Of a stretch of DNA of 64,000 bases, positions 1 through 55,519 are shown piece by piece. The DNA comes from Escherichia coli. Its GTDB lineage: Bacteria; Pseudomonadota; Gammaproteobacteria; Enterobacterales; Enterobacteriaceae. How positions within the stretch are numbered: the stretch's first letter is position 1; each line of letters starts with the position of its first letter. Location: the NCBI RefSeq assembly GCF_044647545.1, contig NZ_CP172818.1. One strand, 5' to 3'. Both the position numbers and the translations under genes were made by a program. The notes under the pieces are model-generated. The model was not told where the DNA came from and did no database searches. It saw only the letters and a program-made list of their open reading frames with translations.

Positions 1-316
1 GCTGTGGGAATGGTCCATTTATTTACAGGAATTTTGAAGATCTTAAACATTGCCCATGCAAAAGCCACATAGGTCAAAATAATCAGTAAATCCATAAGTA
101 TTACTCGGCAGAAGAGGTCTTGATGTCGGCGAGCTGTTTCTCCAGCCCGGCAATACGCTGTTGTAGTTGCACAACGCCGGAGGAGTCATGGTTTTGCATT
201 CCCCATCCCCGCTCCGGGCGGTAAAGCGTGGCCCAAATCCACAAAATGGCCAGATAACATGCAGCGTAAAAAGACTCACCCAACCAGCAACATGAATGGC
301 GTCGGCATGAGGATGA

Positions 317-325
317 TTACGTTTT
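317..325. repeat. IS1 target-site duplication, left copy (ttacgtttt)
   Basis: Identical 9-bp direct repeat ttacgtttt immediately flanks both IS1 ends (317-325 and 1095-1103). Confidence 0.85.
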
Positions 326-351
326 GGTGATGCTGCCAACTTACTGATTTA

Positions 352-657
352 GTGTATGATGGTGTTTTTGAGGTGCTCCAGTGGCTTCTGTTTCTATCAG
401 CTGTCCCTCCTGTTCAGCTACTTGACGGGGTGGTGCGTAACGGCAAAAGCACCGCCGGACATCAGCGTTATCTCTGCTCTCACTGCCGTAAAACATGGCA
501 ACTGCAGTTCACTTACACCGCTTCTCAACCCGGTACGCACCAGAAAATCATTGATATGGCCATGAATGGCGTTGGATGCCGGGCAACCGCCCGCATTATG
601 GGCGTTGGCCTCAACGCGATTTTACGTCACTTAAAAAACTCAGGCCGCAGTCGGTAA
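352..657 (+). CDS. insA: IS1 InsA-like protein, N-terminus altered by a +1 insertion relative to canonical insA
   Basis: ORF-track protein matches InsA from ...[31 protein letters not shown]... to the stop. The canonical GTG start (381) frame hits TGA after about 14 codons because of an extra T at about 422-423 (gctacTtgacgggg). Confidence 0.75.
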
Positions 658-1079
658 CCTCGCGCATACAGCCGGGCAGTGACGTCATCGTCTGCGCGGA
701 AATGGACGAACAGTGGGGCTATGTCGGGGCTAAATCGCGCCAGCGCTGGCTGTTTTACGCGTATGACAGGCTCCGGAAGACGGTTGTTGCGCACGTATTC
801 GGTGAACGCACTATGGCGACGCTGGGGCGTCTTATGAGCCTGCTGTCACCCTTTGACGTGGTGATATGGATGACGGATGGCTGGCCGCTGTATGAATCCC
901 GCCTGAAGGGAAAGCTGCACGTAATCAGCAAGCGATATACGCAGCGAATTGAGCGGCATAACCTGAATCTGAGGCAGCACCTGGCACGGCTGGGACGGAA
1001 GTCGCTGTCGTTCTCAAAATCGGTGGAGCTGCATGACAAAGTCATCGGGCATTATCTGAACATAAAACACTATCAATAA
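576..1079 (+). CDS. insB: IS1 InsB reading frame (transposase C-terminal part, normally expressed as InsAB' by -1 frameshifting)
   Basis: 167-aa ORF (...[19 protein letters not shown]...[15 protein letters not shown]) matching IS1 InsB; A-rich slippery region ttaaaaaactc near the insA stop. Confidence 0.85.
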
Positions 1080-1094
1080 GTTGGAGTCATTACC

Positions 1095-1103
1095 TTACGT
1101 TTT
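1095..1103. repeat. IS1 target-site duplication, right copy (ttacgtttt)
   Basis: Same 9-mer as 317-325, directly abutting the IS1 right end. Confidence 0.85.
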
Positions 1104-1647
1104 TTAGCAATCAGGTAGGGAATATCATGTAAAATAATAATCCCATAGAATATCACCAGAAATACAAAAATAAGCACTCCCAGTGCAAAATAGTCCAGGA
1201 ACATATTTCCCTCAAAGAATATAAAAAAGAACAATTAACGCATATTATGAAATGCCATGATGCAGTGCAACTTCCTTATTTATATAACGACATATTGTTT
1301 TTTATATACTTTCTGAAATGTGCTGTCTGGTTTTTCAACAGGACGAGGTTTATCATATTGAAATAGTGGAACTATTGGCCAAACTAATGAATAACTCCAG
1401 TAAAACATCCACAGTACAGATTAAGCGTATTAAACCTTCAATTATCTACCGTTTATTGCTGATTGGCCTCGGATCACCAATGGTGATTTACGGCCTGGTT
1501 CGCCCGCTAACCATCGAAACGCGAGATTAAACGCCCGGCAATACACGCCGGGCAGCTTCTGCCAGAAACGCACTTCTGTTGGCGTAGTCTGGGTTATTGC
1601 GCACGTAGGTTTAAAACGTAAATTGTAACAACGTGCGCTTTGTTTAT

Positions 1648-8970: not shown

Positions 8971-11900
8971 ATGAGCGGAAAACCGGCGGCGCGTCAGGGC
9001 GACATGACGCAGTATGGCGGTAGCATTGTCCAGGGTTCAGCCGGGGTACGTATTGGTGCCCCCACCGGCGTGGCCTGTTCGGTGTGCCCCGGCGGAGTAA
9101 CGTCCGGCCATCCGGTCAATCCGCTGCTCGGTGCAAAGGTCCTTCCCGGCGAGACAGACATCGCCCTGCCCGGCCCGCTGCCGTTCATTCTCTCCCGCAC
9201 CTACAGCAGTTACCGGACAAAAACGCCCGCGCCGGTGGGGAGCCTCGGCCCCGGCTGGAAAATGCCTGCGGATATCCGCTTACAGCTGCGCGATAACACA
9301 CTGATACTCAGTGATAACGGCGGCAGAAGCCTGTATTTTGAGCACCTGTTTCCCGGTGAGGACGGTTACAGCCGCAGCGAGTCACTCTGGCTGGTGCGCG
9401 GCGGCGTGGCGAAACTGGATGAAGGTCACCGGCTGGCCGCACTCTGGCAGGCGCTGCCGGAAGAGCTTCGCCTGAGTCCGCATCGTTATCTGGCGACGAA
9501 CAGTCCACAGGGGCCGTGGTGGGTACTCGGCTGGTGTGAGCGGGTGCCGGAGGCGGATGAGGTGCTGCCTGCGCCGCTGCCGCCGTACCGGGTACTGACC
9601 GGGCTGGTGGACCGCTTCGGGCGCACACAGACGTTCCACCGTGAGGCTGGCGGCGAATTCAGCGGCGAAATCACCGGCGTGACGGATGGCGCAGGCCGTC
9701 ACTTCCGGCTGGTACTGACCACGCAGGCGCTGCGGGCAGAAGAGGCCCGGCAGAAGGCCATTTCCGGCGGGACGGAACCGTCCGCTTTTCCTGATACCCT
9801 GCCGGACTACACGGAATATGGCCGGGACAACGGTATCCGTCTGTCTGCCGTGTGGCTGACACACGACCCTGAATACCCGGAGAATTTACCTGCCGCGCCG
9901 CTGGTGCGCTATGGCTGGACGCCACGCGGCGAACTGGCGGTGGTGTATGACCGCAGCAATACACAGGTGCGCAGCTTTACTTACGATGATAAATACCGGG
10001 GCCGGATGGTGGCGCACCGTCACACGGGCCGGCCGGAAATCCGTTACCGTTACGACAGTGACGGGCGGGTGACAGAACAGCTAAACCCGGCAGGCTTAAG
10101 CTACACGTATCAGTATGAGAAAGACCGCATCACCATCACCGACAGCCTGGACCGCCGTGAAGTCCTGCATACCGCAGGCGAAGGCGGCCTGAAGCGGGTG
10201 GTGAAAAAGGAACACGCGGACGGCAGCGTCACGCAGAGTCAGTTTGACGCGGTGGGCAGGCTTAAGACACAGACGGATGCCGCAGGCCGGACAACAGAAT
10301 ACAGCCCGGATGTGGTGACGGGCCTCATCACGCGCATCACCACGCCGGATGGCAGGGCATCGGCGTTTTACTATAACCACCACAGCCAGTTAACGTCAGC
10401 CACCGGGCCTGACGGGCTGGAAATACGCCGGGAATATGATGAATCCGGCCGTCTGATTCAGGAAACCGCCCCTGACGGCGATATCACCCGCTACCGTTAT
10501 GATAATCCACACAGTGACTTCCCCTGCGCAACGGAAGATGCCACCGGCAGCCGGAAAACCATGACGTGGAGCCGTTACGGTCAGTTGCTGAGCTTCACCG
10601 ACTGTTCCGGCTACCAGACCCGTTATGACCATGACCGCTTCGGGCAGATGACGGCGGTGCACCGCGAGGAAGGCCTGAGCCAGTGCCGCGCATACGACAG
10701 CCGTGGACAGTTAATTGCCGTGAAAGACACGCAGGGCCATGAAACGCGGTATGAATACAACATCGCCGGTGACCTGACCGCCGTCATTGCCCCGGACGGC
10801 AGCAGAAACGGGACACAGTACGATGCGTGGGGAAAGGCCATCCGTACCACGCAGGGCGGGCTGACCCGCAGTATGGAATACGATGCTGCAGGACGGGTCA
10901 TCCGCCTGACAAACGAAAACGGCAGCCACACCACCTTCCGTTACGATGTACTCGACCGGCTGATACAGGAAACCGGCTTTGACGGCCGCACACAGCGTTA
11001 CCACCACGACCTGACCGGCAAACTTATCCGCAGCGAGGATGAGGGGCTGGTCACCCACTGGCACTATGACGAAGCAGACCGCATCACGCAGCGAACGGTG
11101 AATGGTGAAACCGCAGAACAGTGGCGGTACGACGAACGCGGCTGGCTGACACAAATCAGCCATCTCAGCGAAGGGCACCGGGTGACGGTGCATTACGGGT
11201 ATGATGAGAAAGGCCGCCTGACCGGTGAGCGCCAGACGGTGCATCATCCGCAGACGGAAGCACTGCTCTGGCAGCATGAGACCAGACATGCGTACAACGC
11301 GCAGGGGCTGGCGAACCGCTGTATACCGGACAACCTGCCCGCCGTGGAATGGCTGACTTATGGCAGTGGTTACCTGGCAGGGATGAAACTCGGCGACACA
11401 CCGCTGGTGGAGTACACCCGCGACCGCCTGCACCGGGAAACGCTGCGCAGCTTCGGCCGTTATGAACTCACCACCGCTTATACCCCTGCCGGGCAGTTAC
11501 AGAGCCAGCACCTGAACAGCCTGCAGTATGACCGCGATTACACCTGGAACGACAACGGCGAACTCATTCGCATCAGCAGCCCGCGCCAGACCCGGAGTTA
11601 CAGCTACAGCGACTCCGGCAGGCTGACCGGCGTTCACACCACCGCAGCGAACCTGGATATCCGCATCCCGTATGCCACGGACCCGGCAGGTAACCGCCTG
11701 CCCGACCCGGAGCTGCACCCGGACAGCACCCTCAGCATGTGGCCGGATAACCGTATCGCCCGTGACGCGCACTATCTTTACCGGTATGACCGTCACGGCA
11801 GGCTGACGGAGAAAACCGACCTCATCCCGGAAGGGGTTATCCGCACGGATGATGAGCGGACTCACCGGTACCATTACGACAGCCGGCACCGGCTGGTGCA

Positions 11901-12750
11901 CTACACGCGGACACAATATGCAGAGCCGCTGGTCGAAAGTCGCTATCTTTACGACCCGCTGGGCCGCAGGGTGGCAAAACGGGTGTGGCGGCGTGAACGG
12001 GACCTGACGGGCTGGATGTCGCTGTCACGGAAACCGGAAGTGACCTGGTACGGCTGGGACGGCGACCGCCTGACCACGATACAGAACGACAGAACCCGCA
12101 TCCAGACGGTTTATCAGCCGGGGAGCTTCACACCACTCATCAGGGTCGAAACCGCCACCGGTGAGCAGGCGAAAACGCAGCGCCGCAGCCTGGCGGATGC
12201 GCTTCAGCAGTCCGGCGGCGAAGACGGTGGCAGTGTGGTGTTCCCGCCGGTGCTGGTGCAGATGCTCGACCGGCTGGAAAGTGAAATCCTTACTGACCGG
12301 GTGAGTGAGGAAAGCCGCCGCTGGCTGGCATCGTGCGGCCTGACGGTGGCGCAGATGCAAAACCAGATGGACCCGGTGTACACGCCGGCGCGAAAAATCC
12401 ACCTGTACCACTGCGACCATCGCGGCCTGCCGCTGGCGCTTGTCAGCACGGAAGGGGCAACAGAATGGTGCGCAGAATACGATGAGTGGGGCAACCTGCT
12501 GAATGAAGAGAACCCGCACCAGCTGCAACAGCTTATCCGCCTGCCGGGTCAGCAGTATGATGAGGAGTCCGGCCTGTATTACAACCGCCACCGCTATTAT
12601 GACCCGCTGCAGGGGCGGTATATCACTCAGGATCCGATTGGGCTGAAGGGGGGATGGAATTTTTATCAGTATCCGTTGAATCCGATATCAGACATCGAGC
12701 CCCCTGGGTTTATCTATGTGGGAGGATGCAAAATCGGGGGCATGTACTAA
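8971..12750 (+). CDS. rhsA: Rhs-family core protein (RhsA-type) with N-terminal PAAR-like region and YD repeats; very short atypical C-terminal tip
   Basis: 1259-aa ORF starting [26 protein letters not shown]; many YD/RHS repeats (RYRYDxxGR); conserved core end ...[29 protein letters not shown], followed by only [21 protein letters not shown] before the stop. GC-rich, unlike the AT-rich DNA downstream. Confidence 0.9.
12241..12686 (+). repeat. 3' end of rhs core; copy A of a dispersed direct repeat (copies at 14626-15069 and 17213-17298)
   Basis: About 450 bp nearly identical to 14626-15069; the last 80 bp or so also recur at 17213-17298. Boundaries are approximate. Confidence 0.8.
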
Positions 12751-13754
12751 TGGTCTTTGCGGCATATCAGCTGTGATGAGAGGTGCATAAGTTTTTCATA
12801 GACCGCATATGACGCCTTAATAACAATAAAATTAAAATATATTTTCAATAAAATCAATAGCCAAATAAAATAAATAAATAAATTTTCCCTGCACCTAGAA
12901 CGTGGAGAAAGTTAGTACATACTATGGATGCAATAGCATTGACATAATGGTGGGACGAATATTTTCACTTCGACTAATGTGGTAGATATCAGATTTGGAC
13001 GAAATATTTTAAGCAAAGATGAAAATAATTAAAATAAACAACGAATAAATACCACCCCATTAATAAACAATAGATAACCACGGGAAGGAAATAACAAACG
13101 GAAAAGGATCCGATGCCAGAGTTATCGGTAATATTAAAAAAAAAAATATAAATAAAATAAATAAATTTTATTTAGCACTCCCATTTTTTTTACACAACAT
13201 GGCCATAATAATAATTTTAAAATAATAATGACGGGAAAGAGAGAAAGAAGGTAAACTGTAAAAGGATTACAAAAATTTGGTCTACAAATACAGGTTATAG
13301 TAAAAAAATATTTTTTAGAATTTATTGTATCTTTTTTTTTTTACAACAACACAGGTCGCAGTGTAATTACAGAGATATTAAAATAATGCTCAAATTTATG
13401 AAGCAGTGAGGCAGAAGAATATACATATAAACGCTTCATTAAAACAAGTGGGTAATTTGGTTAAAAATAAACTAACATTGAATTACAATATATGTTAAAA
13501 TCAGGCAACCAAAAAGAAAAAATATAAAATATGATTAACAACAAGTCTTGTTGAAGGCACCATTCACTCAGACCAAATTGCTGGTGGGGTTTTTATTAGA
13601 AAATAGGCAAAAATGATGGGGTAATTCTGAATTTTGGCCACGGAAAATAAGTATGTAAGGATAATCAAACATCGTGTGCGCTGATGGCAGAGTAGGTGGA
13701 GGACTCCAGACAGTCAAACGATAAAAAAAGATAGCCTTTATGGAGGCTCCTGCA

Positions 13755-14597
13755 ATGTCAAATACATACCAGAAAAGAAAGGCAAGTAAAGAGTATGGTT
13801 TATATAATCAATGTAAGAAACTAAATGATGATGAATTATTTCGCTTACTTGATGATCACAATTCCTTGAAAAGGATTTCATCTGCCAGAGTATTACAGTT
13901 AAGAGGTGGGCAAGACGCTGTTAGATTGGTAATTGAGTTCTGCTCTGATAAAAATTATATCCGTAGAGATATCGGAGCATTTATACTCGGGCAAATAAAA
14001 ATTTGCAAAAAATGCGAAGATAATGTGTTTAATATTTTGAACAATATGGCATTGAATGATAAGAGCGCTTGCGTTCGAGCTACGGCAATCGAGTCAACGG
14101 CTCAGCGATGCAAGAAAAACCCAATTTATTCACCTAAAATAGTAGAACAATCTCAAATTACTGCTTTTGATAAATCGACTAATGTCAGACGTGCTACAGC
14201 ATTTGCTATTTCTGTTATCAATGATAAAGCAACAATTCCACTATTGATTAATCTGTTAAAAGATCCAAATGGAGATGTCAGAAACTGGGCCGCATTTGCA
14301 ATAAATATCAATAAATATGATAATAGTGATATTAGGGATTGTTTTGTGGAGATGCTTCAGGATAAAAATGAGGAAGTCCGTATTGAAGCAATAATCGGAC
14401 TTTCCTACAGAAAAGATAAAAGGGTTTTATCTGTTTTATGCGATGAGTTAAAAAAAAATACTGTTTATGATGATATCATTGAAGCTGCGGGTGAATTAGG
14501 TGATAAAACGCTACTTCCTGTTTTAGATACTATGTTGTACAAGTTTGATGACAATGAAATTATAACTTCCGCTATTGATAAGCTGAAGCGTTCATAG
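13755..14597 (+). CDS. yibA: HEAT/armadillo-repeat protein YibA
   Basis: 280-aa product from the ATG at 13755 (MSNTYQKRKASKEYGLYNQ...); repeated helical DxxVRxxAxxAL-like units; sits inside the Rhs accessory region as in K-12. Confidence 0.85.
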   Translation: MSNTYQKRKASKEYGLYNQCKKLNDDELFRLLDDHNSLKRISSARVLQLRGGQDAVRLVIEFCSDKNYIRRDIGAFILGQIKICKKCEDNVFNILNNMALNDKSACVRATAIESTAQRCKKNPIYSPKIVEQSQITAFDKSTNVRRATAFAISVINDKATIPLLINLLKDPNGDVRNWAAFAININKYDNSDIRDCFVEMLQDKNEEVRIEAIIGLSYRKDKRVLSVLCDELKKNTVYDDIIEAAGELGDKTLLPVLDTMLYKFDDNEIITSAIDKLKRS

Positions 14598-14638
14598 CGT
14601 GAGTTGCCTATGCACAGTGGGGTATTCCCGCCGGCACG

Positions 14639-15148
14639 GTGCAGATGCTCGATCGGCTGGAAAGTGAAATCCTGGCTGACCGGGTGAGTGAGGAAAGCCG
14701 CCGCTGGCTGGCATCGTGCGGCCTGACGGTGGAGCAGATGCAAAACCAGATGGACCCGGTGTTCACGCCGGCGCGAAAAATCCACCTGTACCACTGCGAC
14801 CATCGCGGCCTGCCGCTGGCCCTTATCAGCAAGGAAGGGACAACAGAATGGTACGCAGAATATGATGAATGGGGCAACCTGCTGAATGAAGAGAACCCGC
14901 ACCAGCTGCAACAGCTCATCCGCCTGCCGGGTCAGCAGTATGATGAGGAGTCCGGCCTGTATTACAACCGCCACCGCTATTATGACCCGCTGCAGGGGCG
15001 GTATATCACTCAGGATCCGATTGGGCTGAAGGGGGGATGGAATTTTTATCAGTATCCGTTGAATCCGATGACAACGGTTGATCCTCTTGGATTAAAATTT
15101 AAGGTAGAAGGTGACGGTCAGCTTTTGATTCTGCAATTGAATATTTGA
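14639..15148 (+). pseudogene. yibJ: Orphan Rhs core-end fragment (yibJ/rhsJ-like) with a truncated C-terminal tip
   Basis: GTG-initiated 169-aa ORF duplicating the last 150 residues or so of the rhsA core ([12 protein letters not shown]...[27 protein letters not shown]), then only 17 residues before the stop; no upstream core. Confidence 0.65.
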
Positions 15149-15209
15149 AACAAGATGATGAGATGAAAAAAAATAATTACGGCCCTTGAAAAGGATAAAC
15201 ACACTATAG

Positions 15210-15536
15210 TGGTTAGTTGTAATAATAATTATGATACACTCATTTAATCGATGGACAATGAGAATACACTGGGATCCTAAAGCTGCTCTATTGTGTACGG
15301 GTGTACAGAAAGATGGTAATTTTGATTTTAAAAATGACAATCTTGAGCCTGTAGTAGCATTAGGTCATGAAATAGCCCATGCAGAGGCTTATTAAATGAA
15401 GAATTCAGTGTTTATATGAAGCGAGTAAATACACCTGATCCTATATATGATAACGCAGAGGAAAGAAGAGTAATAACAGGTATTGAGAAACATGTTGCAC
15501 AAACATTAAAACAATGTGTTAGAAAAAACCACGGGG
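15210..15536 (+). pseudogene. Decayed remnant of a putative HExxH-motif toxin domain (two short frames separated by a frameshift)
   Basis: Frame 1 (about 15210-15396) translates ...WDPKAALLCTGVQKDGNFDFKNDNLEPVVALGHEIAHAEAY*; a second frame (about 15411-15536) gives MKRVNTPDPIYDNAEERRVITGIEKHVAQTLKQCVRKNHGE*. Read by eye; no ORF of 60 aa or more. Confidence 0.3.
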
Positions 15537-17284
15537 AATAATTTACCATGTACCTTAACAATATACGGTTGTAGTTGCTATATTTGTAAAGAGATTACCC
15601 CATCGAACCGGAATAAATGAAAATGACTATATTTTATGAGTTACTATCATCATTGAACAATCAGCATATAAGATAACCTCACCAAAAGCAGTTTAAACCA
15701 TGGTAAGTTGTAGAAGTGGGACATCTCGGCACCCCATTTTTTGTATGAAAAGTTACGAGAAATATATATTTTAATTTTTTTTTATATTATATATTAACCA
15801 AAATTAAAAAAACAACAATTTAAATAAAAAATTATTTATTACTTATATATTAACAATATCATAATAAATTCATTAAAACCGCTAGTTATAAATAATTATA
15901 AAAAAATCACAAATTGTTAAAATTTAATATTAATTATTTTAAAACAACCTAATGATATAAGATGGGGATTTATAGATCTAAGTGAAAGAGCTTGTTACTA
16001 TATTTTTATTTTTCTTTTGTTCCGGTGATTTGAATGGTATTAGTATGTTGAAAAAAATAGAAAAAAAGTGGAGGGGTCTAAGCCATAATATATCATTAGT
16101 GAAGAAAAGATGATGCATAAACTGAAATATAATATGGCAAAAAAGAATTCAAAGGCATCATTCTACTCCTGACTATTTTTCACATTTCCTCGAAGTTAAA
16201 TTGAAAATACGAGACGCAATATTAAAATTATACAAATGAATTCCAGAAAATCACGTAACGCTGCTTTTTTTACTAAACAATTCCATTTTATGTTTAAAAA
16301 TTAGATATCTATTAGAAGCTGTTTTTTATTGTTATAGATCATCAAAAATACTCCTTATAATAAAAGAACAAAATTGATTAAAAAATTGAAAATATTTATT
16401 ATCCATTACAACAATAAAAAATAAATTATATATTCTATTTGACTATTGGTTATTTCGTAGATGGTTGGGAAATATAACGATTATTGGAAAGATCAGCATC
16501 TCGGGATTTTTACAAGCAATATTGATTTTGAAAAGGGTATTCCTTTTCACGATACCATTCCAGATTTACCTGTATCAGATCTTGCATAATTTCACGAGAG
16601 CTTTATTAATTGGATGTGACATTCTCAGATGAAATAAAGCGTCATATTGTATGGAAACGATTTATACAAATCCCCAAATATTATTATGTAAAAATTTATC
16701 AAATAGAAATCAGACAGATGCGAAATCCAATGAGATCAAACAGCTACAAATTTAAAAATATTAAAAAAAATCATCACAAACGTATTAAAAATAAAAAATA
16801 CAAAAACATATTATTTATCTTAAAAGAAATCACCTAAATAAACCTAGAAAAATCATAAAATTAAATAACAAAATACATACCAATTATGAAAAATCACCAA
16901 AAAAATCTCTCACATTCATTCTATGAATTATTATTTCACTAATAAATCTAAAATCATTGCATCTCTCTCAATAATACAAACAAAAAAAAAAAAACGTCAA
17001 TATAATCATTCTTATTTAACCAAAGCTTCCACACAATCGAAACAGCACGGAAATAAGCCGCACTGGCGTCGACGCGGTAATGAATGAAGACGACTGCAAA
17101 ATAAGAAGAATCCGTAAACAGCAGAATTAGTTCTCAGGATACCGCACACGCTAGTAATATACGAATGATAAGTATTCAAGGCAGTGCTAAGACGTAATAT
17201 CGGTAACTTTTCCCGCCGCAGGGGCGGTATATCACTCAGGATCCGATTGGGCTGAAGGGGGGATGGAATTTTTATCAGTATCCG

Positions 17285-17758
17285 TTGAATCCGATAACTG
17301 ATATTGACCCGTTGGGATTAGCGACCTGTTTATACAGCATAACTTTAGGTATGCTTTCATGCGTTTCAGATACGTCAAGTGATGATAATTCTTATGGTGT
17401 GCTTACTATTTCAGTCGCCTCTGGTAATAATGGTAATAATATGCAATGTAAAAATAATCCTGGTTGTACACACTTACAAAATAGAGGCCCAATACCTCAA
17501 GGGGTATGGAGCTGGAATGTTAATGGTCCTGGAGCAACTAATAGAAAACCTAATGGTATACGTTTAGTACCGTCAGCAAATACAGAAACGTATAATCGTG
17601 ATGGATTTTTAACACATAGTTGTTTAAACGCTTTTGGTCCATCTTTAGGACCTCGATTCTGTTCCGAGGGGTGTATAACTGGTTCATCTAATGACATGCA
17701 AAAATTAAATGAGCTAATATTTTCAGAGCCAGATAGCACATTAACAGTGACGGACTAG
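17285..17758 (+). CDS. Orphan Rhs C-terminal toxin module; putative L,D-transpeptidase-like (YkuD/Tlde1-like) toxin domain
   Basis: Rhs core-end homology resumes at about 17213 ([36 protein letters not shown]); in-frame stop at 17204-17206 and no ATG before the TTG at 17285. The tip contains RGPIPQGVW and H-x15-SEGCI ([24 protein letters not shown]), resembling the LD-transpeptidase catalytic His/Cys signature. Confidence 0.6.
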
Positions 17759-25024: not shown

Positions 25025-25387
25025 ATGAAAGAAGTCGAAAAAAACGAAATCAAACGTCTCAGCGATCGCCTGGACGCCATCCGTCACCAGCAGGCCGATC
25101 TGTCGCTGGTTGAAGCCGCAGACAAATATGCCGAACTGGAAAAAGAGAAAGCCACTCTGGAAGCAGAAATTGCTCGCCTGCGCGAAGTTCACAGCCAGAA
25201 ACTCAGCAAAGAAGCGCAGAAACTGATGAAGATGCCGTTCCAGCGTGCAATCACCAAAAAAGAGCAGGCTGATATGGGCAAACTGAAAAAAAGTGTTCGC
25301 GGACTGGTGGTTGTGCACCCAATGACCGCGCTGGGCCGTGAAATGGGCCTGCAAGAGATGACAGGGTTCTCAAAGACTGCGTTTTAA
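25025..25387 (+). CDS. yibL: DUF2810 family protein YibL
   Basis: 120-aa charged coiled-coil-rich ORF ([23 protein letters not shown]...). Confidence 0.85.
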
Positions 25388-25423
25388 GAACACAGTATCT
25401 ACAGGGTGATTCTGCACATTCCT

Positions 25424-25460
25424 ATAGGCCGAGTAAGGTGTTCACGCCGCATCCGGCAAG
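25424..25460. repeat. REP element
   Basis: ataggccgagtaaggtgttcacgccgcatccggcaag, matching the REP consensus (reverse orientation). Confidence 0.65.
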
Positions 25461-25544
25461 ATAAGGCGCTCTGGATCAACAACCTAAGGGCAATTCTCTG
25501 ATGAGGATTGCCCTTTTCTTTACCAGACATCTCCCTCCACCAAG

Positions 25545-25561
25545 AATTGGCCCTACCAATT
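25545..25561. promoter_or_regulatory. Putative LldR operator O1 (palindrome AATTGG-N5-CCAATT)
   Basis: aattggccctaccaatt, a perfect 6-bp inverted repeat about 200 bp upstream of lldP; GntR/FadR-type operator architecture. Confidence 0.6.
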
Positions 25562-25673
25562 CTTCGCTTATCTGACCTCTGGTTCACAATTCCCCAATTA
25601 AAACTCACATCAATGTTGCTAATGCATAACATTTAGTTAACTATCCATTGTCATTATCCCTACACAACACAAT

Positions 25674-25684
25674 TGGCAGTGCCA
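25674..25684. promoter_or_regulatory. Putative LldR operator O2 (TGGCA-N-TGCCA)
   Basis: tggcagtgcca palindrome about 80 bp upstream of the lldP start codon. Confidence 0.5.
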
Positions 25685-25759
25685 CTTTTACACAACGTGT
25701 GACAAGGAGATGAGCAACAGACTCATTACACTGCGTGTGTGGACTGCAGGAGACCTGCA

Positions 25760-27415
25760 ATGAATCTCTGGCAACAAAACTACGATCCCGCCGGGAATAT
25801 CTGGCTTTCCAGCCTGATAGCATCGCTTCCCATCCTGTTTTTCTTCTTTGCGCTGATTAAGCTCAAACTGAAAGGATACGTCGCCGCCTCATGGACGGTG
25901 GCAATCGCCCTTGCCGTGGCTTTGCTGTTCTATAAAATGCCGGTCGCTAACGCGCTGGCCTCGGTGGTTTATGGCTTCTTCTACGGGTTGTGGCCCATCG
26001 CGTGGATCATTATTGCGGCAGTGTTCGTCTATAAGATCTCGGTGAAAACCGGGCAGTTTGACATCATCCGCTCGTCTATTCTTTCGATAACCCCTGACCA
26101 GCGCCTGCAAATGCTGATCGTCGGTTTCTGTTTCGGCGCTTTCCTTGAAGGAGCCGCAGGCTTTGGCGCACCGGTAGCAATTACCGCCGCATTGCTGGTC
26201 GGTCTGGGCTTTAAACCACTCTACGCCGCCGGACTGTGCCTGATTGTTAACACCGCACCAGTGGCATTTGGCGCGATGGGTATTCCGATTCTGGTCGCCG
26301 GGCAGGTAACAGGCATCGACAGCTTTGAGATTGGTCAGATGGTGGGGCGTCAGCTGCCGTTTATGACCATTATCGTGCTGTTCTGGATCATGGCGATTAT
26401 GGACGGTTGGCGCGGTATCAAAGAGACGTGGCCTGCGGTCGTGGTTGCAGGTGGTTCGTTTGCCATTGCTCAATACCTCAGCTCTAACTTCATTGGGCCG
26501 GAACTGCCAGACATTATCTCTTCGCTGGTATCACTGCTCTGCCTGACGCTGTTCCTCAAACGCTGGCAACCAGTGCGCGTATTCCGCTTCGGTGACTTGG
26601 GGGCGTCACAGGTTGATATGACGCTGGCTCACACAGGTTACACGGCAGGTCAGGTGCTGCGCGCCTGGACACCGTTTCTGTTCCTGACCGCCACCGTAAC
26701 GCTGTGGAGTATCCCGCCGTTTAAAGCCCTGTTCGCTTCAGGCGGTGCGCTGTATGAGTGGGTGATCAACATTCCGGTGCCGTACCTCGATAAACTGGTT
26801 GCCCGTATGCCGCCAGTGGTCAGCGAAGCGACAGCGTATGCCGCCGTGTTTAAGTTTGACTGGTTCTCTGCCACCGGTACCGCCATTCTGTTTGCTGCCC
26901 TGCTCTCGATTGTCTGGCTGAAGATGAAACCATCTGACGCTATCAGCACCTTCGGCAGCACGCTGAAAGAACTGGCTCTGCCCATCTACTCCATCGGTAT
27001 GGTGCTGGCATTCGCCTTTATCTCGAACTATTCCGGTTTGTCATCAACACTGGCGCTGGCACTGGCGCACACCGGTCATGCATTCACCTTCTTCTCGCCG
27101 TTCCTCGGCTGGCTTGGTGTCTTCCTGACCGGATCGGATACCTCATCTAACGCCCTGTTCGCCGCCCTGCAAGCCACTGCAGCACAACAAATTGGCGTTT
27201 CTGACCTGTTGCTGGTTGCTGCCAACACCACCGGTGGTGTCACCGGCAAAATGATCTCTCCGCAATCTATCGCTATCGCCTGTGCGGCGGTAGGCCTGGT
27301 GGGCAAAGAGTCTGATTTGTTCCGCTTTACTGTCAAACACAGCCTGATCTTCACCTGTATGGTGGGCGTGATCACCACGCTTCAGGCCTATGTCTTAACG
27401 TGGATGATTCCTTAA
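25760..27415 (+). CDS. lldP: L-lactate permease
   Basis: 551-aa product from the ATG at 25760 ([30 protein letters not shown]...), multi-TM lactate permease family. Confidence 0.95.
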
Positions 27416-40762: not shown

Positions 40763-40971
40763 TGCGATTCTCCAGACAGGGCAAATTCCAGCACATATTA
40801 CCCAAACTTATAGGTCGCGACGAGATGACGCGTTAACACTTCTGCAAAATTCAGGATAAATCCAGCCCCCTCACTTTTGGTGAATGGCTGAAGCCAACGT
40901 CATGTAGTGATATGATAAGAAGTATTCGTGTCTGAGATTGTCTCTGACTCCATAATTCGAAGGTTACAGCT

Positions 40972-55156: not shown

Positions 55157-55168
55157 CACGCTACCGCC
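55157..55168 (-). promoter_or_regulatory. ops element (GGCGGTAGCGTG) of the JUMPstart sequence in the waaQ operon leader; RfaH recruitment site
   Basis: Reverse complement of 55157-55168 is ggcggtagcgtg, located about 50-60 nt upstream of the waaQ start on the coding strand. Confidence 0.75.
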
Positions 55169-55519
55169 CCAGGCTCAACAGCTACCTGAATACTGATACC
55201 GCACTGATATTGACGCGCTAGTGTATCACTTCTTTCGCGGCAATCCGACCCGAATGATTTTTAAGCACATTGTTGATTTTCAATAAAGAAATCAATCAAA
55301 TAAAATCATTAGCAACCATATTCTTTTACTGTTGCTCTGCGATTCCTTCCTGCACGTACTGCAGAAATCAATGAATCGCATAAAAATACAAAAAAAGTAT
55401 AGATGTTCAGCAAGAATTGGCGGGTAAATTGCTATTTAAGTCAAAAACGGGAAAAGTAATGGTAAAGCCACAGCTAAATACATAGAATCCCCAGCACATC
55501 CATAAGTCAGCTATTTACT

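Follow-up and report, generated by a model that had tools for sequence, protein, structure and literature searches.

The window analysed here is a 64,000-nt stretch of one strand of the Escherichia coli contig NZ_CP172818.1 (assembly GCF_044647545.1). It carries an IS1 element inserted in yiaW, a minus-strand DUF3302 gene that lies between yiaV and aldB, and the surrounding 44 kb is normal E. coli chromosome, with aldB, sel, rhs, mtl, lld and gpmM, on to the waa genes. The features of the insertion are as follows.

101..325, minus strand: 3' remnant of the interrupted yiaW (DUF3302), with a secondary frameshift, a 3-nt insertion and a dinucleotide substitution
317..325, no strand: left copy of the target site duplication, 9 bp, ttacgtttt (read from the sequence, flanks inspected)
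326..1094, plus strand: IS1 element of the IS1A type, 769 bp where 768 is usual, sharing 99.6% identity with the 768-bp IS1A copies of many E. coli genomes
326..348, plus strand: left inverted repeat IRL, exactly GGTGATGCTGCCAACTTACTGAT, the same as in the reference copies, with no alignment differences
1072..1094, plus strand: right inverted repeat IRR, the same as in the reference copies
1095..1103, no strand: right copy of the target site duplication, 9 bp, ttacgtttt (read from the sequence, flanks inspected)
1095..1204, minus strand: 5' remnant of the interrupted yiaW, its first 37 codons

The canonical left end of IS1, GGTGATGCTGCCAACTTACTGAT, has a single match in the window, and the right terminus of the element reads ...GTTGGAGTCATTACC. 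When the IS1 and one copy of ttacgtttt are taken out, yiaW is continuous again. The length fits the approximately 768 bp of the IS1 family, as do the imperfect terminal inverted repeats of about 23–30 bp and a direct target duplication in the range of 8–9 bp (9 bp here), and there is an A6C motif near the end of insA and an insB' frame with a DDE domain. These ends, together with the duplication at the target, the A6C motif and the DDE domain, place 326–1094 in the IS1 family.

Other copies at exactly this site were sought. Coverage of window positions 1–1500 reaches 80% or more in thirteen genomes, and in all five of those that were examined IS1 lies at a different position. These five contain no orthologous IS1 copy at that yiaW site, so they provide no ancestral copy for comparison. 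The alleles of AldB and of a 70-aa neighbour are very common, and none of the loci returned for them has this IS1 insertion.

yiaW and its surroundings have received independent IS1 insertions repeatedly. MSB1_9I, BDSF8-3 and E70 have IS1 copies that lie within yiaW or on its 5' boundary; the three sites differ, and each has its own target duplication. In ET881 and 2017.06.04CC the IS1 adjoins yiaW and on its far side abuts a truncated TRAP-transporter gene, an arrangement that suggests adjacent deletions. The yiaW-aldB intergenic region (1095–1760) shares no more than 97% identity with any complete E. coli genome. Over 5.2 kb, the adjacent aldB-yiaY-selB segment matches GCA_052768395.1 at 100% identity; that genome has no yiaW-yiaT, and its place there is taken by Fic, HSDR_N and hicAB genes. 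The yiaW-aldB locus is a mosaic.

Several other features of the window were recorded. Relative to E. coli MSB1_9I, the window has neither the island of a YadA-like adhesin and DUF3251 between yibL and lldP (25385–25760) nor yibB (htrL) between kbl and rfaD (40862–40923). Positions 8971–17545 hold the rhs region, in which a main RhsB-like ORF is followed by several partial core and toxin-tip fragments; alignment with the rhs loci of LH50-c and MSB1_9I is only piecewise. The window was scanned against Rfam and gave one match, the JUMPstart RNA element (RF01707, 55 bits) at 55157–55195 on the minus strand, upstream of the LPS core (waa) operon, and none within the IS1.

Private changes in the IS1 copy

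The element was aligned with eight references, namely K-12 IS1A, the IS1 of plasmid R100, and the copies of E308, MSB1_9I, 2017.06.04CC, BDSF8-3, ET881 and E70. All eight are 768 bp long, and three changes occur in the window copy only. The same three are the sole differences between 326–1094 and the closest 768-bp IS1A copy, that of E. coli E308.

422..423, plus strand: inserted T (one of two Ts), IS1 position 97, from the reference alignments
468, plus strand: substitution C to T, IS1 position 143, synonymous in insA (CGC to CGT), private, from the alignments
616, plus strand: substitution A to G, IS1 position 291, InsA T79A, private, from the alignments; it lies inside the Pfam HTH_Tnp_IS1 match (InsA 43–88)

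The preliminary description of this DNA had read gctacttgacgggg at about 417–430, where it is found exactly at 417–430, and had interpreted it as a +1 insertion relative to the canonical IS1. It had named pairwise alignment with reference IS1 copies as one way to check this. The canonical sequence that it had used proved right: the alignment contains the indel, as a 1-nt gap against E308 and the eight references, and the site without the extra T reads GCTACTGACGGGG. The length of 769 bp that it had given agrees with the measured one.

The allele was then sought in larger collections. A 61-nt query centred on the insertion has best matches of 98.4%, all with one gap, at no fewer than approximately 59,000 IS1 places in complete E. 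coli genomes; the exact allele with the extra T was not found at these at least 59,000 or so places, which come from 8,317 records of 4,313 complete E. coli genomes. Among the 5,000 best-scoring Enterobacterales plasmid records the same query again gave 98.4% matches with one gap each, and the extra T was not found. An exact 36-nt pattern containing it is absent from the GTDB species-representative genomes and from metagenome contigs. For window positions 426–640, which exclude the insertion, the best identity among approximately 72,700 IS1 places is 99.1%, the value that corresponds to both mismatches; the substitutions at 468 and 616 are thus both private to this copy. An exact protein look-up returned no record for the 167-aa InsB variant or for the 101-aa ORF described below.

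Reading frames and expression signals of the element

The coding features and signals within the IS1 are listed here.

333..360, plus strand: predicted IS1 promoter, with -35 CTGCCA, a 16-nt spacer and -10 TATGAT, from a consensus scan; partly inside IRL
352..657, plus strand: 101-aa ORF from an upstream GTG, from the ORF list, with a partial Pfam zinc ribbon and no Shine-Dalgarno, its start inside the predicted promoter
381..425, plus strand: truncated canonical insA, with a GTG start, 14 sense codons and a premature TGA at 423–425, from translation
424..657, plus strand: remainder of insA, residues 15–91, in the +1 frame and with T79A, from translation and Pfam HTH_Tnp_IS1; it includes the second CxxC pair together with the HTH
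576..1079, plus strand: insB reading frame, 167 aa, with an intact DDE domain (Pfam DDE_Tnp_IS1 1–131/131, E = 2e-78), the same as the reference after 616
633..639, plus strand: A6C programmed -1 frameshift motif AAAAAAC, intact, the same as the reference; PMC12428005 describes what it does

A reference copy translates to the full 91-aa InsA. In the window copy the frame opened by the GTG at 381, with the Shine-Dalgarno GAGGUG 4 nt upstream and a duplex energy of -9.2 kcal/mol with the 16S 3' end, has the stop that the preliminary description had placed after about 14 codons, and the other 77 residues are encoded in the +1 frame, beginning at 424. Residues 1–14 and 15–91 therefore lie in different frames, which leaves the first Cys pair (CPSC) behind in a 14-residue peptide. 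Comparison with Pfam gives the same picture. Zn_ribbon_InsA matches the reference InsA over 1–35/35 and the 101-aa ORF over 15–35/35 only. A hypothetical product from GTG 430 would likewise lack the first half of the zinc ribbon (the match of the 101-aa ORF or of the GTG 430 product is 15–35 or 17–35), and no single ORF of the window copy covers the family beyond 15–35/35. HTH_Tnp_IS1 matches the reference InsA over 1–46/46, and this domain is complete in the window copy too, with T79A. The inverted repeats, the A6C site and all sequence after 616 are identical to the reference.

Two further statements of the preliminary description concern the ORF from GTG 352. That it has none of the N-terminal CPSC residues of InsA is borne out by the Pfam ribbon match. 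That it is the only long ORF holds for the InsA frame, but not for the element as a whole, since the 167-aa insB ORF is also intact.

The 101-aa ORF is poorly placed for expression. The region contains a single sigma-70-like site (-35 box at 333–338, -10 box at 355–360), and GTG 352 sits in the spacer of this predicted promoter, directly before the -10 box. The position of the predicted promoter agrees with the published one, in which the IS1 promoter partly overlaps IRL (PMC12428005). The IS1 transcript should start downstream of GTG 352. The 20 nt upstream of this GTG show no pairing with the 16S rRNA 3' end (+0.6 kcal/mol). Because it has no Shine-Dalgarno and starts within the predicted promoter, expression of the ORF from the transcript of the IS1 itself is unlikely, and the ORF is probably a by-product of the change of frame rather than an expressed gene. 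It is also unlikely to rescue function, as even a product translated from a read-through transcript would be without the first half of the zinc ribbon.

Probable loss of autonomy and alternative explanations

What defines an autonomous IS1 is a continuous InsA-InsB' path from the canonical start, and the window copy has none, since the TGA at 423–425 ends that frame. Taken together, its features suggest that this IS1 is probably a defective, non-autonomous copy of the IS1A type that gained its T insertion after entering yiaW. The element would have inserted in yiaW, making the usual 9-bp target duplication, and a single T would have been gained afterwards in insA codon 14/15. Ribosomes would load at GTG 381, which is preceded by a strong Shine-Dalgarno, translate 14 codons and terminate at the new TGA, so that both the InsA repressor and the InsAB' transposase would be missing. 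InsAB' would be lost as well because it shares its start codon with InsA, in addition to its need for a -1 shift at A6C. Products begun downstream, by re-initiation at GTG 430 or 433, or upstream, at GTG 352, would lack the first zinc-ribbon Cys pair for binding of the IS1 ends. Zinc finger and HTH are both required for inverted repeat-specific DNA binding by InsA, InsAB' shares both of them with InsA, and insB by itself encodes no protein (PMC12428005). Loss of transposition activity is the most likely consequence as judged from the reading frames. With its perfect inverted repeats the copy would stay a substrate for the InsAB' of another IS1 acting in trans, with less efficiency than in cis, and it could be mobilised in this way by another IS1 in the same cell. 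InsAB' has been found to prefer action in cis, being approximately 25-fold less efficient in trans, and to move in trans otherwise immobile IS1 copies, miniIS1 and cassettes flanked by IRL and IRR (PMC12903888). The preliminary description had called the element probably not autonomous, and the stop after 14 codons, the split zinc ribbon and the poorly expressible GTG 352 ORF all point the same way.

Two other explanations have to be weighed. The extra T might be a sequencing or assembly error, the true element being an intact 768-bp IS1. It is unique among all IS1 places examined, multi-copy repeats are the parts of a genome that are hardest to polish, and a nearby indel of the homopolymer type, A4 instead of A5 at 243–246 (a 1-nt deletion and frameshift in the 3' remnant of yiaW), is likewise private. 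All three private changes of the IS1 fall within its first 291 bp, for which our rough estimate of the chance is about 0.05, a value that is only weakly suggestive. Against an error stand the alignments of the neighbourhood: the 38 genes from aldB to rfaC (approximately 44 kb) align with their E. coli orthologs over their full lengths with no gaps or frameshifts, and one DNA alignment of 11,469 bp is gap-free. Moreover, the reference has a single T before the inserted one, not a homopolymer run, and the two private substitutions in the same copy are not explained by errors of the indel type. The flanks differ by 2–3% from every complete E. coli genome. With flanks so diverged and a lineage so poorly sampled, private differences are expected, and the idea that the clustering of private changes (118–616) marks a stretch of low quality is weakened further. 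The 3' remnant of yiaW carries, besides the deletion at 243–246, a 3-nt in-frame insertion near 175–177 and an adjacent double substitution at 118–119, and all three lesions are absent from the 3,788 complete E. coli genomes compared. The private substitutions of the IS1 and the private lesions of yiaW fit a resident, long-dead and decaying locus, an argument of limited weight given how far the right flank itself has diverged. We consider an error unlikely, and the extra T is probably real.

If the T is real, the frameshift might still be bypassed and the copy be partly functional, by a +1 ribosomal shift at ACU-UGA-C, by re-initiation at GTG 430 or 433, or by translation of read-through transcripts from GTG 352. 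The +1 shift would give back InsA exactly as in the wild type, and the new stop is a UGA followed by C (423–426), in general a weak terminator context. A +1 site of the prfB type, however, has in addition to UGA C a slippery CUU U and a stimulator about 3 nt upstream, and neither is present here: there is no slippery codon of the CUU-U type, and the sequence upstream of the stop, CCUCCUGUUCAGCU, contains no purine-rich stimulator that resembles a Shine-Dalgarno. The tRNA that reads ACU cannot re-pair on CUU, a pairing disallowed by the wobble rules. To make transposase, two rare recoding events would be required in succession. Re-initiation has in its favour that GTG 430 and GTG 433 lie 4 and 7 nt past the stop in the correct frame and that GGGGUG pairs with the anti-Shine-Dalgarno (-8.2 kcal/mol), but GGGGUG touches GTG 433 with zero spacing. 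The ORF from GTG 352 is open, and external read-through transcription is known to feed IS1 (PMC12428005), but this GTG has no Shine-Dalgarno. Whether begun at 352 or at 430/433, the products would be without the first Cys pair, which is required for binding of the inverted repeats. Partial function by any of these routes is very unlikely. A related scenario, in which termination at UGA 423–425 is followed by re-initiation at GTG 430/433 to give an InsA without the first half of the ribbon, with the HTH (T79A) kept, and this product or its -1 frameshift fusion to InsB' acts as a natural dominant-negative or decoy on the InsA and InsAB' of other IS1 copies, has an even slimmer chance of being right.

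A defective resident copy that gained the T within yiaW remains the preferred explanation. The private mutations do not serve to date the insertion, since the right flank (1095–1760) is itself only 97% identical to the best complete genome and the lineage is poorly sampled at the locus.

Relationship to known IS1 elements

The window copy is an ordinary insertion sequence, probably inactivated by its frameshift, and not a new type of element. It has the same inverted repeats, promoter region, insA start and Shine-Dalgarno, A6C motif, DDE domain and 9-bp duplication as IS1A and IS1E of K-12 (768-bp consensus) and the E308 copy. It has three differences from the E308 copy and five from K-12 IS1A. 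Relative to IS1A and IS1E, it is distinguished by the extra T at position 97, which truncates InsA and InsAB', by C143T and by A291G (InsA T79A).

Other resident copies provide the nearest parallels. IS1B/C, IS1D and IS1F of K-12 have likewise kept their ends, have no working transposase and rely on other copies (PMC12428005). Their reading frames are open and they are impaired by substitutions (9 to 73 mismatches), whereas the window copy has a frameshift and premature stop and is otherwise near the consensus; K-12 copies with only 9 consensus mismatches are already almost immobile (PMC12428005). miniIS1 and the IRL-IRR cassettes resemble it in having intact ends and no transposase of their own, and InsAB' supplied from elsewhere should, by analogy with them, move the window copy (PMC12903888). 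In contrast to miniIS1, it is natural and full-length and still carries its coding sequence.

These relationships bear on how the element should be annotated and counted. It should be labelled as an IS1 pseudogene or non-autonomous copy, and no gene should be annotated for the 101-aa ORF that begins at GTG 352. The unique allele, if real, could serve as a strain-specific marker. As a probably defective copy, it would not be part of the active IS1 load of the genome; it would still be a substrate for recombination, and it could be moved in trans.
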